This document shows, one piece after another, positions 14,490-48,922 of a stretch of 64,000 nt of DNA. Position 1 is the stretch's first letter, and each line of letters starts with the position of its first letter. Source of the DNA: a virus (lineage: Duplodnaviria > Caudoviricetes); the IMG/VR virus record IMGVR_UViG_3300020577_011550, positions 13,792 to 77,791 of that record; one strand, written 5' to 3'. A program made the translations under genes and the position numbers. A model generated the notes under the pieces. It searched no databases, had not been told where the DNA came from, and saw nothing but the letters and a program-made list of their open reading frames with translations.

Positions 14490-15084
14490 CAAGATTCCGA
14501 TTGAATGGGGTAAGCAGAATTTGTTTTCGAACCCCACAGGTTATCAGCTCAACATCCATACTGGCGTGACCGTTGGCCTGCAAAACACGTTGACGCTCCT
14601 CCAAATGCCGCTCGCCGAGGAGCACCTTGACCCGGCCTATGTGTTCCTCAAACGCCTGCCGCTCGTACGCGATCCCTTTGACCGGACGAAGCGGGTCGCC
14701 ATCATCACCGACGGGCTGTATATCACGAAAGATCTCGAAGGGTTACAGCTCGAAATCGCGAAGATGGATCGGCCGCAGAATGATCCCATTCCGGAGATGA
14801 TGGTCTATTCGCGGGATACGGTGGCGGGCGTGCTCGACGTCGTCATCGTCTGGGGCATGGTCTTAAGCGGCAAGGCTCCCAACGGCGATTTGGTGGGCGA
14901 CTGGTACTTCATCATCTGTCGGTTGGACGAGCTGATTCGTGTACTAGAGGACATCTTTCTGATCGACCGCTGGTTTAGCAACGTTGAAGAAGCGACTCAG
15001 CCCCTGCCGAAAAAGAAAGCGACCGTGGATGAGAAGCGGGCGGCCATCGAACGGGTGTTGGCAGAAGCCGGGTTGCCCCGATGA
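14479..15084 (+). CDS. hypothetical protein
   Basis: ATG at 14479; operon packing. Confidence 0.55.
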   Translation: MADNKIPIEWGKQNLFSNPTGYQLNIHTGVTVGLQNTLTLLQMPLAEEHLDPAYVFLKRLPLVRDPFDRTKRVAIITDGLYITKDLEGLQLEIAKMDRPQNDPIPEMMVYSRDTVAGVLDVVIVWGMVLSGKAPNGDLVGDWYFIICRLDELIRVLEDIFLIDRWFSNVEEATQPLPKKKATVDEKRAAIERVLAEAGLPR

Positions 15085-15572
15085 ACGATCGACCAACCAT
15101 TCTCATCTGTGGCAGTCGCGAGGCTTCGCCCGTGCTGCTCGACTATGCGCGCCGCGCCACACTCCGCGCGCTTGAAAATGGCTGGTGGCTCATCGCCGGG
15201 GATGCCCTTGGTGTGGATCAGGTGGTCGCCGAAACGGTGCGCAACCACTTCCAGCACGAAGACGAGCTGATGTATGGGATGCGCGTCTACGGGCTTGGCG
15301 ATATGCCGCGGCATGGCATTGGCTCAAATACGGGGCGTGTTCATTTCCAGAAACTGACTGGCTACACCAAACAAACCATGACCCGTGGCCGCTGTGATTT
15401 GCATGTCTACAACGAGTACACGGCGATCAGCAGCTACACCGACCGCGACCGCTACATGGTGCGCGAGGCGGATAAGGTGCTGTGCATCTGGAACGGCAGC
15501 AGCCGGGGCACGCTGGCAGTCTACGAGTACGCCGAAGAACTGGGAAAGGAGGCTTGGCTTAAATATGAATAG
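15081..15572 (+). CDS. SLOG superfamily (YspA-like) protein
   Basis: ILICGSR, IAGDALGVD, RDRYMV...AD...WNGSSRGT. Confidence 0.8.
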   Translation: MNDRPTILICGSREASPVLLDYARRATLRALENGWWLIAGDALGVDQVVAETVRNHFQHEDELMYGMRVYGLGDMPRHGIGSNTGRVHFQKLTGYTKQTMTRGRCDLHVYNEYTAISSYTDRDRYMVREADKVLCIWNGSSRGTLAVYEYAEELGKEAWLKYE

Positions 15573-16857
15573 TGCCCTTTTCTCCTCCGCCGCCGCGCTA
15601 TGGGCCACGCCACAAGACCTGTTCGATAAGCTGCACCGCGAATTCCACTTTGAGGTGGACGTGTGTGCAATCGCTGAGAATGCCAAGTGCCCGGTCTACT
15701 TCACGCCGGAAATGGACGGCTTGAAGCAGGAGTGGCTAAGTACCCTCATAGTCAATAAAACAGGATCTATCTGCCAATGTCAGAAGCACTCATTCAATGC
15801 TCCAAGTGCAAAGAATATAAACCTGCTACAAGGGAGTTCTTCTACCCAGACCAACGTAAGAAAAGCGGATTTGCCACTCAATGCAAAGCTTGCAAAAGAA
15901 AAGGGAAACGTTCGGACAAAGCGATTGAAACAGGTAAATTGGAATGCACCCGTTGTAAGGTCACTAAACCCCTTACACTTGAGTATTTTGCTCGCAACCC
16001 TGATAACCGAACAGGATATTCCTCTTGGTGCCGAGAATGCAGTCGTGAACATGCTCGGCTTAAACAGGCGCGCCGACGCGCTGATCCTGTGGAGCGAGCT
16101 TCTGTCATTGCGGCCAAAGAGAAATATGCTAAATCAGAAAAGGGGCGACAGCGCAGTCGGCGCAACACTAACATCCAAAACCATAAGAGACGTCAGCGAA
16201 ATATTGAAACGCAATGGGATTGGACAGCAACCGACTGGAAAACCTGTAAAGCCGCTTGGGATCACTGCTGTGCATATTGCGGGGAACGCGGAAAACTTAC
16301 GCAAGATCACTTTATCCCCTTATCTTCTCCCGACTGCCCCGGAACAATCCGTCAGAATATGGTTCCGGCGTGTGCCAAGTGCAATTCTTCAAAACAAAAT
16401 CGGTCGCCATTTGAATGGTGCACGAACCAAGATGTACTACGAAGGATACAGAGTTACTTCGCATCATTGCCCACAGTGCGGTGAATGCATCGAAATTACG
16501 TATCCATCTATAGCATGGATGAATCCCCCGTACGGTTCGCCGGAGCACGTGTGCAAGCCCAACTGCAAAAAGAAGCGCTGCGCGAAGCGCGGCTACCACA
16601 ACACCGTATACAAGCCGGGCATCATCGACTTCATGCACAAGGCGTACACCAGCGCGAAAGCGGGCGCAACCGTCGTGTGCCTGGTTCCGGCCCGCACCGA
16701 CACCAAATGGTGGTGGAGCTACGCGATTCACGGCGAAGTCCGGTTTTTGAAAGGACGCCTCAAATTTGGGGACGGGAAGAAGAATGCGCCCTTTCCGTCA
16801 GCGATCATCATTTTTCATCCGGGTCTTGCCAATCAGGGAGTAAAATGGGGGCTATGA
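15565..16857 (+). CDS. phage Dam-type DNA N6-adenine methyltransferase with a ~258-codon in-frame insertion
   Basis: WATPQDLF, DVCA, DGLKQEW before the insertion; WMNPPYG, LVPARTDT, LKGRLKF, APFPS after it; no stop codon in this frame. Confidence 0.8.
   Translation: MNSALFSSAAALWATPQDLFDKLHREFHFEVDVCAIAENAKCPVYFTPEMDGLKQEWLSTLIVNKTGSICQCQKHSFNAPSAKNINLLQGSSSTQTNVRKADLPLNAKLAKEKGNVRTKRLKQVNWNAPVVRSLNPLHLSILLATLITEQDIPLGAENAVVNMLGLNRRADALILWSELLSLRPKRNMLNQKRGDSAVGATLTSKTIRDVSEILKRNGIGQQPTGKPVKPLGITAVHIAGNAENLRKITLSPYLLPTAPEQSVRIWFRRVPSAILQNKIGRHLNGARTKMYYEGYRVTSHHCPQCGECIEITYPSIAWMNPPYGSPEHVCKPNCKKKRCAKRGYHNTVYKPGIIDFMHKAYTSAKAGATVVCLVPARTDTKWWWSYAIHGEVRFLKGRLKFGDGKKNAPFPSAIIIFHPGLANQGVKWGL
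15777..16484 (+). CDS. HNH endonuclease nested in another frame inside the MTase gene
   Basis: Two CxxC..KP..F..CxxC zinc modules, then CAYCG...LTQDHFIPLS...NMVPACAKCNSSK; lower GC than the flanks. Confidence 0.9.
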   Translation: MSEALIQCSKCKEYKPATREFFYPDQRKKSGFATQCKACKRKGKRSDKAIETGKLECTRCKVTKPLTLEYFARNPDNRTGYSSWCRECSREHARLKQARRRADPVERASVIAAKEKYAKSEKGRQRSRRNTNIQNHKRRQRNIETQWDWTATDWKTCKAAWDHCCAYCGERGKLTQDHFIPLSSPDCPGTIRQNMVPACAKCNSSKQNRSPFEWCTNQDVLRRIQSYFASLPTVR

Positions 16858-17270
16858 GACAGTGGACGCCCGTCGTGAATCTGGTGGTCGGCACTGATCG
16901 TCCAACGCTCGAGCAAATCGAGCGCGTGCAATTTGTGGTTGCTCAATCATGGTGGAAGCATCAGCAGGTGGTCACGACCGACGACCACGGCATCAACGCC
17001 GAAGTTGCCCGGCAGTGCCTGCTCCAGTGCGTAGAGTGCACGATTATTGGCACAGGCCAGCGCCCGGCGAATGGCGCCGACGGGCAGTATGTGCGCGTGC
17101 TGGTCGAGAAGGGGATCGCCCGTATGGAACGCCGAGCCCGCCGCGATGCCTTCGCGCTCGGCATGGCTGATCGGGTGATTACTTTAGGTGTGCAGGTCAA
17201 GACGGAGAAGTGGACACTGGACTTGCAGGAGCTCACGCCCCTGCAAGTTTTCGGGGAATACAGACGTTGA
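16854..17270 (+). CDS. hypothetical protein, possibly a degenerate SLOG
   Basis: DDHGINAEVA and RRARRDAFALGMADRVI weakly echo SLOG motifs. Confidence 0.5.
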   Translation: MRQWTPVVNLVVGTDRPTLEQIERVQFVVAQSWWKHQQVVTTDDHGINAEVARQCLLQCVECTIIGTGQRPANGADGQYVRVLVEKGIARMERRARRDAFALGMADRVITLGVQVKTEKWTLDLQELTPLQVFGEYRR

Positions 17271-17298
17271 AGAAGCCGGGCATTACGCCCGGCTTTTT
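17271..17298. terminator. intrinsic terminator between convergent operons
   Basis: AAGCCGGG-cattacg-CCCGGCTTTTT. Confidence 0.8.
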
Positions 17299-18076
17299 AG
17301 TTATGCTGAGGAAGTGTCGGTTTTGGAGTCTCACGCCGAAATTCAAAATCCCAATCGGCATTCCCTACCCACGGATAGGTACAATCTGGCATCGCCTTAA
17401 TCTCAAGCACTTCTTCTGGAGTCAAAGAGAACCACTCGGTATCGCCATGTCGCTTATCTGCATATCGTACATGCAGCTCGTGCTCTAAGCAGGCGATTTG
17501 GTTGCTCTGAATCTGGTGTAGAAGCTCAATGCTGAACGGCAACCCTGAAGTAATTTCGCGTCCACGTCGCTGTGGGTTGTTCGAAAAGCCGATCTTGTAG
17601 TGCCCTGTCGAAAGCTGAAACAGATACACATAGCCAGTATGAGGATCGGGATATTTCCAATACAGGTCTTTAAAGCGGAGATATTCTTCATACCGTCTCA
17701 AAAGAGTGTCGGCCTCTTCAAGACGATCATGAAGCATTAGCACTTCATCGGTCGGCTGTAAAACGCACTGCTCGTAAAAGTAGCTACACCACAGTTCAAG
17801 CTGGCTGCGTCCTTCGTCAGAGCGAACGAACCAACGAATAAATTGAACAAACTCAGTGTCCAGATACTTATGGTTCCGATAATGTTCAATTCCCGTATCT
17901 AAACGCTTGTGCATCCAATACAGGTTAGCAGCAGCAAGCAGAGCTTTATGGTTAAGTTGAACATGGAGAAGAGTCTCAGCGAGCGCGTTTACATCCGCGC
18001 CATATACATCGGAAACAAGTTCAATCGAGGTTTCACCGATTAGGAATTTGAATCCACTGATTTTGATGTTATACAT
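17297..18076 (-). CDS. GIY-YIG-like T5orf172-domain protein
   Basis: GYVYLF...YKIGFSNNPQRR...LEHELH..Y...EWF; AT-rich. Confidence 0.85.
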   Translation of the reverse strand: MYNIKISGFKFLIGETSIELVSDVYGADVNALAETLLHVQLNHKALLAAANLYWMHKRLDTGIEHYRNHKYLDTEFVQFIRWFVRSDEGRSQLELWCSYFYEQCVLQPTDEVLMLHDRLEEADTLLRRYEEYLRFKDLYWKYPDPHTGYVYLFQLSTGHYKIGFSNNPQRRGREITSGLPFSIELLHQIQSNQIACLEHELHVRYADKRHGDTEWFSLTPEEVLEIKAMPDCTYPWVGNADWDFEFRRETPKPTLPQHN

Positions 18077-47857: not shown

Positions 47858-48754
47858 CTAACTGCCTCCTTTCAGCCACAAGAAATAACCTTCAATGCGC
47901 TGTTTTATTTTCTTAGCTTTTCGCTCGCCAAACCGCCGAACGAGCCAAGCCTCAGGCTCCAAACTATGCTTGGAGTTATTGCAACCACCGACGCCATCTC
48001 TGCTTGAATGACAAAGTGGAATAATGTTTGTTGGCGTCGTTGCCCCCTGAGCAGAAAGCGGCACCCAGTGATCAGCCGCAAGGATCGTCCAGAAGTCTGG
48101 CGCTTTTCCACAGGCAGCACATTTATGATCGAAATATTCGAGCGCCTTATTCCAGTCGGATGATGTAAAGCTCACTTCTTGCTGAAGTTTTCTCGCCCGA
48201 CGCCTATTTGAGTGGACTTTGGCATATTCGGGATGCTTTAGACGATAATTTCGCTGCTGTAAGCGCACTTTTTCTTTGTTGTTTTGTTCATAGATCCGCT
48301 TAGCTACCCTCACTTTTTCAGGGTTATTGAGCCGATACCTACGGACTGCGTCTCGATGTTTTTGTGGGTTTTCGGCGTACAGATCGCGGCGTCGAGCGTT
48401 CAACTCCTCGCCTTTTTCTTTTAGCATCCGTTTCGCGTAGCTTGCTTTACTTTCTCGCTCTGTAAGCAAACGGCATTCTTTGCACGTCCTATTGAGGCCG
48501 TCGCTCGATCTACTCGACAGGTGAAAAAATGCATCTGATGCTGGAAGTGGGCGTTTACAGACATTACAGATTTTTGTTGCTTCTGGATCAGGCCGATACT
48601 CATATCGTGGTTGCTTGGTTGTTTTGCATGCCTTACACCACGATTGATATCTTCCGCGCTTTGCCTTGTAAAATTCGGTGACGGCTTTGACTTGACCGCA
48701 CTTGCTACACCGACGACTCTCTGTGATACAATCAGGAGTACCCATACGAAACAT
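47858..48754 (-). CDS. HNH homing endonuclease
   Basis: Two CxxC zinc modules; CAACG...LAADHWVPLS...NIIPLC...CNNSK; AT-richer; ATG at 48754 after GAAAGG. Confidence 0.9.
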   Translation of the reverse strand: MFRMGTPDCITESRRCSKCGQVKAVTEFYKAKRGRYQSWCKACKTTKQPRYEYRPDPEATKICNVCKRPLPASDAFFHLSSRSSDGLNRTCKECRLLTERESKASYAKRMLKEKGEELNARRRDLYAENPQKHRDAVRRYRLNNPEKVRVAKRIYEQNNKEKVRLQQRNYRLKHPEYAKVHSNRRRARKLQQEVSFTSSDWNKALEYFDHKCAACGKAPDFWTILAADHWVPLSAQGATTPTNIIPLCHSSRDGVGGCNNSKHSLEPEAWLVRRFGERKAKKIKQRIEGYFLWLKGGS

Positions 48755-48922
48755 AACCTTTCGTTGGTTAGAGGCAGTAGGGTGTGTTGGTAGCACCCCT
48801 ACTGCCTTGTTTGATTTCTCCCCTAAGTATAGCACAAATGAGCTATATCCGCCGATCAGCATCAGGATAGAAACGTCAGCTTCAGGGTGCGTTCGGCCAC
48901 CTGATTCACCGTGTTCAGTTCG

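Follow-up and report, generated by a model that had tools for sequence, protein, structure and literature searches.

An HNH endonuclease gene in a shifted frame inside a stop-free Dam-family methyltransferase gene of an uncultured phage

Main

IMG/VR virus record IMGVR_UViG_3300020577_011550 (Duplodnaviria; Caudoviricetes) is a 77.8-kb contig, of which we analysed bases 13792-77791, a stretch of 64,000 nucleotides (nt) that is hereafter called the window and whose coordinates are used throughout unless another contig is named. Here, we describe an HNH homing-type endonuclease gene that lies in a shifted frame inside a gene for a Dam-family N6-adenine methyltransferase (Dam), the frame of which lacks stops. 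A single frame is open on the plus strand from 15385 to 16857, and the Dam part of it, 430 amino acids (aa) long, starts at an ATG (15565) that overlaps the stop of an upstream SLOG/DprA-like gene (15081-15572) by 8 nt. In Pfam the 430-aa product matches Dam (PF05869) with an E value of 2.2e-19 and 70.2 bits (cut-off 28.1), in two stretches with a break at about profile position 60, and the (N/D)PPY motif IV is present as NPPY at residues 320-323. The 235-aa product of the inner gene matches HNH (PF01844) with an E value of 2.6e-6 and 27.9 bits (cut-off 21.4). Given that 15565 mod 3 is 1 and 15777, the position of the HNH ATG, mod 3 is 0, the methylase frame (the host frame below) is the HNH frame +1.

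The end of DGLKQEW (15735) and the start of IAWMNPPYG (16510), two motifs of the methylase, are separated by approximately 255 extra codons, and the guanine-plus-cytosine (GC) content is 0.44-0.52 in the insert versus 0.57-0.60 in the flanks (Table 1). An initial annotation, made from the letters of the window, had described both an HNH gene in another frame of a methyltransferase whose own frame has no stop and a lower-GC insert between these two motifs, and both descriptions hold: the methylase open reading frame (ORF) of 430 aa belongs to PF05869, the 235-aa ORF to PF01844, and the number of stops is 0. The same annotation had counted approximately 40 and 25 nt on either side of the HNH gene. 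These flanks are indeed short (approximately 41 nt on the 5' side and 13-25 nt on the 3' side within the insert), but the 5' flank is not a mere spacer, as it holds a degenerate copy of the segment that comprises the strand and NPPY (LSTLIVNKTGS). Because this target segment is duplicated, the exact borders of the insert can be moved by a few codons.

Table 1 Features of the invaded Dam locus in the window. L170 is the contig of the insert-less relative P0181
Feature	Position	Strand	Basis and remarks
Dam-family N6-adenine methyltransferase ORF, including the insert	15565..16857	+	430 aa + stop; PF05869
N-terminal Dam segment M1-W57, ending in DGLKQEW	15565..15735	+	Pfam; ~84% nt identity to insert-less L170 over 15079-15728
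Insert, 762 nt (254 codons), directly after W57	15736..16497	+	Comparison with insert-less relatives; GC content
Degenerate 5' copy of the target segment, LSTLIVNKTGS	15736..15768	+	Same alignment columns as xx-hhWMNPPYG of insert-less Dams
AGGA, weak Shine-Dalgarno-like motif	15762..15765	+	11 nt before the HNH ATG; read from the sequence
HNH homing-type endonuclease gene	15777..16484	+	235 aa + TGA; PF01844; homologues; invariant columns
Intact 3' copy of the target segment, YPSIAWMNPPYG	16501..16536	+	Bears catalytic motif IV; 42-nt identity comparison
C-terminal Dam segment, IAWMNPPYG to end	16510..16854	+	89% aa identity to insert-less P0181; 86% nt identity to L170 over 16540-16855

Results

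We first consider whether the open methylase frame could be due to chance. Across the window HNH gene no stop occurs in +1, against 18 in +2. When the codons of the HNH gene are shuffled synonymously, a check that had been proposed with the initial annotation, the +1 frame contains a mean of 4.2 stops and is free of them with a probability, P(0), of 3.5e-4 to 6e-4, and codon-order shuffles give a P(0) of 0.004-0.006. Taken alone, this result is suggestive. We therefore compare it with 170 HNH-family loci drawn from the protein database, the representative library, the encoding contigs, and viral and metagenome contigs. All 13 methylase-nested HNH loci among them, the window included, have an open host frame (8-9 Dam lineages and four cases in N6_N4_Mtase, PF01555), which answers in the affirmative the second proposed check, namely whether homologous insertions also keep the methylase frame free of stops. 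No nested HNH gene with a broken host frame is found among the 170 loci.

The Dam-nested cases with the host frame in the HNH +1 register and without stops are the window, L005/L006, L007/L008, L009, L010, L091, L092 and L094, whereas in Dam-nested L093 the host frame is in the +2 register, with 0 stops in +2 and 9 in +1. The four PF01555-nested loci, L077 (1800-3917), L118 (2-1153), L155 (2-673) and L159 (1003-2832), are likewise stop-free with the host in +2; their shuffles contain 6-10 stops on average and P(0) is below 2e-4 for each. For Dam-nested L009, L091 and L093 the corresponding P(0) values are 0.0008, 0.003 and 0.001. As a control, the 158 HNH homologues not scored as Dam-nested, a set that includes the four PF01555-nested cases (open in +2), average 3.8 stops in +1 and 8.5 in +2 for every 100 codons, and a stop-free +1 frame is seen in only 3 of them. 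The closest free-standing relatives, L004 and L090, have 4 and 5 stops in +1, respectively. Given that 13 of 13 nested loci are open, together with the shuffles, the controls and the lack of any broken case, the joint result is far beyond chance, and it indicates that stops are purged from the host frame by selection, in the +1 and +2 registers alike.

In L038, L149 and L162 the +1 frame is likewise without stops, but no host gene could be recognised; they were rejected as nested cases, and we take their open frames to be due to chance or to an unknown cause. In L038 (2088-3452), which lies on a contig of 64% GC, the open +1 frame across the HNH homologue is 455 aa long and has no Pfam match; it is either a chance product of high GC content or a host gene of unknown family. 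The 706-aa ORF of L077 possibly holds more than one insertion. L090 (1929-3445) contains an intact Dam (1929-2462) followed by a free-standing HNH homologue that overlaps the Dam 3' end, and may represent a precursor state in which the nuclease sits beside its target gene. L007 (2570-4320) carries tandem Dams, the first intact (142 aa) and the second invaded by HNH (439 aa). With an intact paralogue present, selection on the invaded gene could be relaxed, yet the frame of that gene is open.

A search with the C-terminal half of the methylase recovered an insert-less Dam of 177 aa, P0181 on contig L170, which has 89% aa identity in that half. L170 carries the same upstream SLOG/DprA-like gene as the window and is without exactly 762 nt (254 codons), which replaces the excision span of 759 nt (15742-16500) suggested in the initial annotation. 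Identity between L170 and the window at the nucleotide level is 84% over 15079-15728 and 86% over 16540-16855 but approximately 40-57% at the junction. The insert-less protein reads ...DGLKQNW-KAGVVH-WMNPVYGNPEH..., with six residues from the position of W57 to WMN compared with 260 in the window, and the L170-type allele reads ...WKAGVVHWMNPVYG... across the insertion site. This syntenic allele probably defines the target site of the cassette. P0182 (contig L171, from a Joint Genome Institute metagenome) is insert-less too, in a different genomic context.

Sequencing runs were searched as assembled contigs, and parts left uncovered in runs X12, X17 and X7 are uninformative. The phage was seen in wastewater, riverine and activated-sludge runs, a habitat range from which runs with a small share are left out. 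In DNA run X4 the insert is covered at 99% or more, by fragmented contigs, one of which (154 nt, 15690-15843) crosses the 5' junction. Insert-less contigs occur in two wastewater runs, X12 and X17, in which one joint skips 849 nt and has 87 letters in between and the other skips 811 nt and has 49, a net difference of 762 nt (254 codons) at both. These contigs differ from the window by 3-12% and have replaced letters at the joint, and therefore come from other strains rather than being spliced copies of the window strain. On these comparisons, the insert appears to be present in some lineages and absent from others. Among cultured phages, a megablast search of 15000-17400 against 50,697 phage records found no near-identical genome, and all Dams recovered by tblastn with the 430-aa product are insert-less, the two halves matching 360-410 nt apart.

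Both junctions of the window insert carry a version of the target segment, a decayed 5' copy (LSTLIVNKTGS) and an intact 3' copy (YPSIAWMNPPYGS), which align to the same columns of insert-less Dams. Other invaded alleles show the same arrangement, with HIIDAERYG upstream and EYPQSIWINPPYS downstream in L007, AIYLNPCDY upstream and FYPSTVYLNPPYG downstream in L009, and decayed 5' copies RWINTYG in L010 and RVWLTIA in L092. Over 42 nt the window 3' copy has an identity of 0.52-0.60 to invaded L006, L007, L009 and L092 and of 0.38-0.48 to the other four invaded alleles, but of only 0.40 to L170, even though the flanks are 84-86% identical. Most invaded alleles have Y-(P/R/K) in place of W-x. The intact 3' copy thus probably travels with the cassette, either as a co-conversion tract or as an integral part of it, and we infer that the divergence of the junction renders an invaded allele immune to its own nuclease. 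A zinc clamp formed by conserved host-frame cysteine motifs near both junctions was considered and rejected, given that these motifs arise from xTG codons of the HNH frame with C or T as the next letter and do not occur in L007 and L009.

A codon-position test of which frame is under selection at the protein level is based on one close pair, L092 and L094. Within the insert, 69 differences are distributed over HNH codon positions 3, 1 and 2 as 38, 25 and 6, HNH position 3 being host position 2. Counted by codon, the HNH frame has 33 synonymous versus 28 non-synonymous changes and the host frame 16 versus 42. Of 83 differences in the C-terminal half of Dam, 52 affect host position 3, with 39 synonymous versus 23 non-synonymous changes. 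In this pair, HNH therefore appears to be the constrained protein inside the insert, in which the host frame seems constrained only not to stop, and the methylase outside the insert appears to be under purifying selection. Variants of motif IV were seen in three relatives: NPPS in L091 (3-1469) and NSPY in L093 (483-1628), both after the insert, and NPVY in insert-less L170 (1163-1696). The methylases of some of these relatives may be atypical or lack activity.

From an alignment of 65 Dams, invaded and insert-less, AlphaFold2 predicts the two Dam halves (residues 10-70 and 300-420) with a predicted local distance difference test (pLDDT) score of 82-97, whereas the residues of the insert are mostly below 50, except for helices at 105-181 with a pLDDT of 54-84. 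Short strands are predicted at 59-63, in the decayed copy, and at 309-313 and 316-319, leading into NPPY. A Foldseek search of the 430-aa model against the PDB gave weak matches only, to E. coli Dam and M.TaqI (E 0.016-0.05). The model is compatible with an insertion that loops out. Residues 105-181, a predicted helical bundle, correspond to 15877-16107 of the window and are the host-frame reading of the most conserved HNH stretch; the bundle could be a genuine fold or could simply follow from the conservation of HNH.

The HNH protein consists of two CxxC...CxxC zinc-ribbon modules followed by an HNH/HNN core (C165, C168, D177-H178, N194, C199, C202 and N203), and the CxxC pairs as well as C165, C168, D177, H178, N194, C199 and C202 are invariant across 14 homologues. 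Homologues from the protein database are 41-54% identical to it. An in-frame TAA lies six codons upstream of the HNH ATG, which makes a fusion with Dam or a frameshift origin of HNH unlikely. A promoter scan of 15400-17400 found no sigma-70-like site upstream of the window HNH gene. In nested relatives L006 (1988-2002), L009 (2332-2346) and L093 (729-744) the HNH ATG is preceded by an exact TATAAT at a distance of 6-7 nt, and TACAAT is found at the same place in L092 (698-712) and in free-standing L004 (2000-2014); the TATAAT motif is not present in the window. Because it falls in differing codon registers of the host frame, it is read as a nucleotide-level signal, and it suggests an internal promoter in the methylase gene of these relatives, with a transcription start at about the A of the ATG and a leaderless HNH mRNA. 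Two further paralogues of the HNH family are encoded by the same virus, at 47858-48862 (minus strand) of the window and at G000:C1:9479-10213 (minus strand; L002:1435-2277), with identities of 27% and 33%. Neither is nested; both are free-standing, with other genes on either side.

Downstream of Dam, a 259-aa T5orf172/MUG113 (GIY-YIG-like) gene on the minus strand (17297-18076) lies in a low-GC island (0.45-0.49), with a strong bidirectional terminator-like hairpin (approximately 17265-17300) just before it. This gene may be another mobile nuclease-type gene adjoining the Dam locus.

Discussion

The explanation that we favor, with a probability of about 0.8, is that a mobile HNH cassette is tolerated as a translated, largely disordered loop in Dam, with HNH started separately and without removal at the RNA or protein level. 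The HNH homing-endonuclease cassette would have inserted after the conserved W57 and ahead of the beta-strand bearing the catalytic NPPY, bringing along a functional Y-P-x-x-hWhNPPYG copy 3' of HNH and leaving a decayed copy upstream. Ribosomes that start at the Dam ATG would read the whole cassette in the HNH +1 frame and produce a 430-aa methyltransferase, the two halves of which would fold together while 254 additional residues loop out, largely disordered. Selection would remove stops from the host frame and otherwise be blind to its amino acids, and the nuclease would be made from its own ATG (15777) inside the Dam message. Full-length Dam would be made and methylate DNA, and HNH would cut insert-less alleles at the NPPY-coding site and have spread by homing. 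Residence in a host gene independent of splicing, by dual coding with a tolerated loop, was among the options raised in the initial annotation and is the one that the comparative data support.

Several observations weigh against this explanation. The shuffle is not significant alone in GC-rich L010 (P = 0.39) or in L007 (P = 0.16). The non-canonical motif IV after the insert in two invaded alleles (L091 and L093) means that some hosts may be inactive while their frame is open. The ribosome-binding site of the window HNH gene is weak (AGGA at 11-nt spacing). Runs X12 and X17 are RNA-type libraries and the library type of L170 is not known, so that a spliced transcript of a related invaded phage is conceivable. 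A 151-nt contig from metatranscriptome run X17, 98% identical to the window, spans the 3' junction unspliced, yet is weak evidence because it possibly reflects DNA carry-over.

It is rather unlikely, but worth keeping in mind, that the cassette is a motif-replacing module with its own catalytic strand, that several lineages of it have an internal promoter, and that the host-frame helix 105-181 has a role of its own. Such a role could be, for example, the tuning of methylase activity or specificity.

HNH genes are frequent passengers of phage group I introns, and on this ground the insert could be an RNA element that escapes recognition and is removed by self-splicing or in some other way, for instance a degenerate group I intron with a core that overlaps the HNH ORF. 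The insert start resembles the 3' exon, a feature called intron-like by Arsenault et al., and insert-less contigs come from RNA-type libraries. We nevertheless consider RNA excision improbable. In Rfam searches, 15000-17500 matches neither a group I nor a group II intron at E <= 10 and no intron reaches the gathering score in 10 related loci, which speaks against the splicing event allowed for in the initial annotation, and the HNH gene is flanked by only the few tens of nucleotides given above. Excision also leaves unexplained why the host frame has stayed stop-free in 13 lineages, in whichever register it lies, and the insert-less contigs, with their divergence and replaced joint letters, point to other strains.

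The methyltransferase could alternatively be a split enzyme, in which an N-terminal piece associates with a C-terminal piece whose translation begins anew within the insert, for instance at the M of MYYEGY, as the initial annotation had proposed. Genes in pieces have a precedent in nrdA of Aeromonas phage Aeh1, which is split by mobE, and a host-frame Met is found near the 3' end of the insert in the window and in L009. However, this Met is missing in L006 and L007, no internal start is conserved, and the upstream piece lacks a terminating stop in 13 of 13 loci. A split enzyme needs no open frame, which leaves the purging of stops unexplained, and we regard this arrangement as very improbable.

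Just as little probability attaches to a recent disruption of a dispensable methylase, dead or dying, with a frame that is open by chance or composition. Phage orphan methylases are often dispensable (PMC11855218), two invaded alleles have the atypical motifs NPPS and NSPY, and open alternative frames are not rare in GC-rich loci, as L010 illustrates. Against this, the window shuffle gives a P of approximately 5e-4, and at least eight independent lineages in two registers are far beyond chance. The C-terminal half of the window Dam is as close to insert-less P0181 as noted above, and change in the same half of L092/L094 is biased toward third positions.

Removal of the host-frame insert after translation, by an atypical intein or by proteolysis, is the least probable of these alternatives. 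An in-frame, stop-free insertion at a conserved motif is intein-like in its placement, and an intein-like element was the original idea for the ShiLan domain. The initial annotation had seen no intein termini, in agreement with Pfam, which finds Dam only and no Hint or intein domain on the 430-aa product, and with the junctions, where the insert starts at L58/T60 and ends in ...EITYPS before I, with neither an N-terminal C/S nor a terminal HN. The 16 synonymous versus 42 non-synonymous changes in the host frame indicate near-free evolution, which a splicing domain would not tolerate, and the insert is mostly disordered in the AlphaFold2 model. Translational bypass, also raised in the initial annotation, was rejected, as 762 nt is far longer than the 50-nt hop in T4 gene 60.

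The closest known system is the ShiLan domain (Gosselin et al. 2023, PMC9957025), which was then recognised as a hidden out-of-frame HNH (Arsenault, Gosselin & Gogarten 2025, PMC11855218), with Pacc40 gp60, a helicase-methylase, as a second published case (PMC11855218). Both insertions are in actinobacteriophage DNA methylases, and the same read-through interpretation has been published for them (PMC11855218) in work that is descriptive (PMC9957025, PMC11855218). Introns usually contain stops when read in the frame of their exons, as has been shown for LittleE gp13 (PMC11855218). By its architecture, and leaving the kinship of the HNH proteins aside, the window locus appears to belong to the ShiLan-type hidden out-of-frame HNH insertions, in another methylase family. 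As in ShiLan, a phage DNA methylase is invaded at a conserved site and its frame is stop-free across the insertion, and a complete zinc-finger HNH lies in the third frame of the methylase, so that the host is HNH +1. Both lack an intron or intein signature, and in both the insert start resembles the sequence 3' of the insertion site and presence among related phages is patchy. Models of the host-frame peptide show, in either case, a small helical element or bundle surrounded by loops of low confidence. The two differ in the host family, given that the window has a small Dam-type PF05869 methylase invaded just before NPPY, whereas the fragment of ShiLan gp65 that we saw looks PF01555-like, with DPPY near the N-terminus. 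They also differ in the phage (an uncultured wastewater or riverine virus of 57% GC versus an actinophage) and in the HNH start (an ATG with a weak Shine-Dalgarno motif versus a GTG without one). In tblastn of the window HNH against the 50,697 phage records, no methylase-annotated match is among the best 60 of 100 records, and in the methylase tblastn the ShiLan record is not among the best 60 matches listed.

Homing endonucleases free of introns and inteins are also found in essential-type genes in Aeh1 nrdA/mobE and in T4 mobA with gene 60/39, and there, too, the host function is thought to be retained. However, those systems rely on two polypeptides or on a 50-nt hop, whereas the window has no stop and no restart and would be read through the nuclease gene. 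I-HmuI and I-PfoP3I are HNH endonucleases encoded by group I introns. They share with the window an HNH homing-type nuclease in a conserved phage gene and the targeting of a conserved catalytic-motif region, but no ribozyme core was found at the window with Rfam.

Beyond the published cases, we add statistics on stop purging, cases in the +2 register and a codon-position test. The Dam family PF05869 is added to the hosts, and the syntenic insert-less L170 provides a probable target site. The suggested leaderless promoter of the relatives bears on the question of HNH translation raised in PMC11855218, although it is not applicable to the window. For the annotation of phage genomes, gene callers report loci of this type as one long 'methylase' or as two methylase fragments with an HNH between them, and both labels are misleading.

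Homing endonuclease genes have been viewed as persisting in coding genes only where an intron or intein carries them or where the host gene is split. A third way, recognised only in 2023-2025, would be for the host to be read through them in a second frame, and the loci described here offer a system suited to the study of overlapping-frame evolution in which one of the two frames appears to be selected only for its lack of stops.

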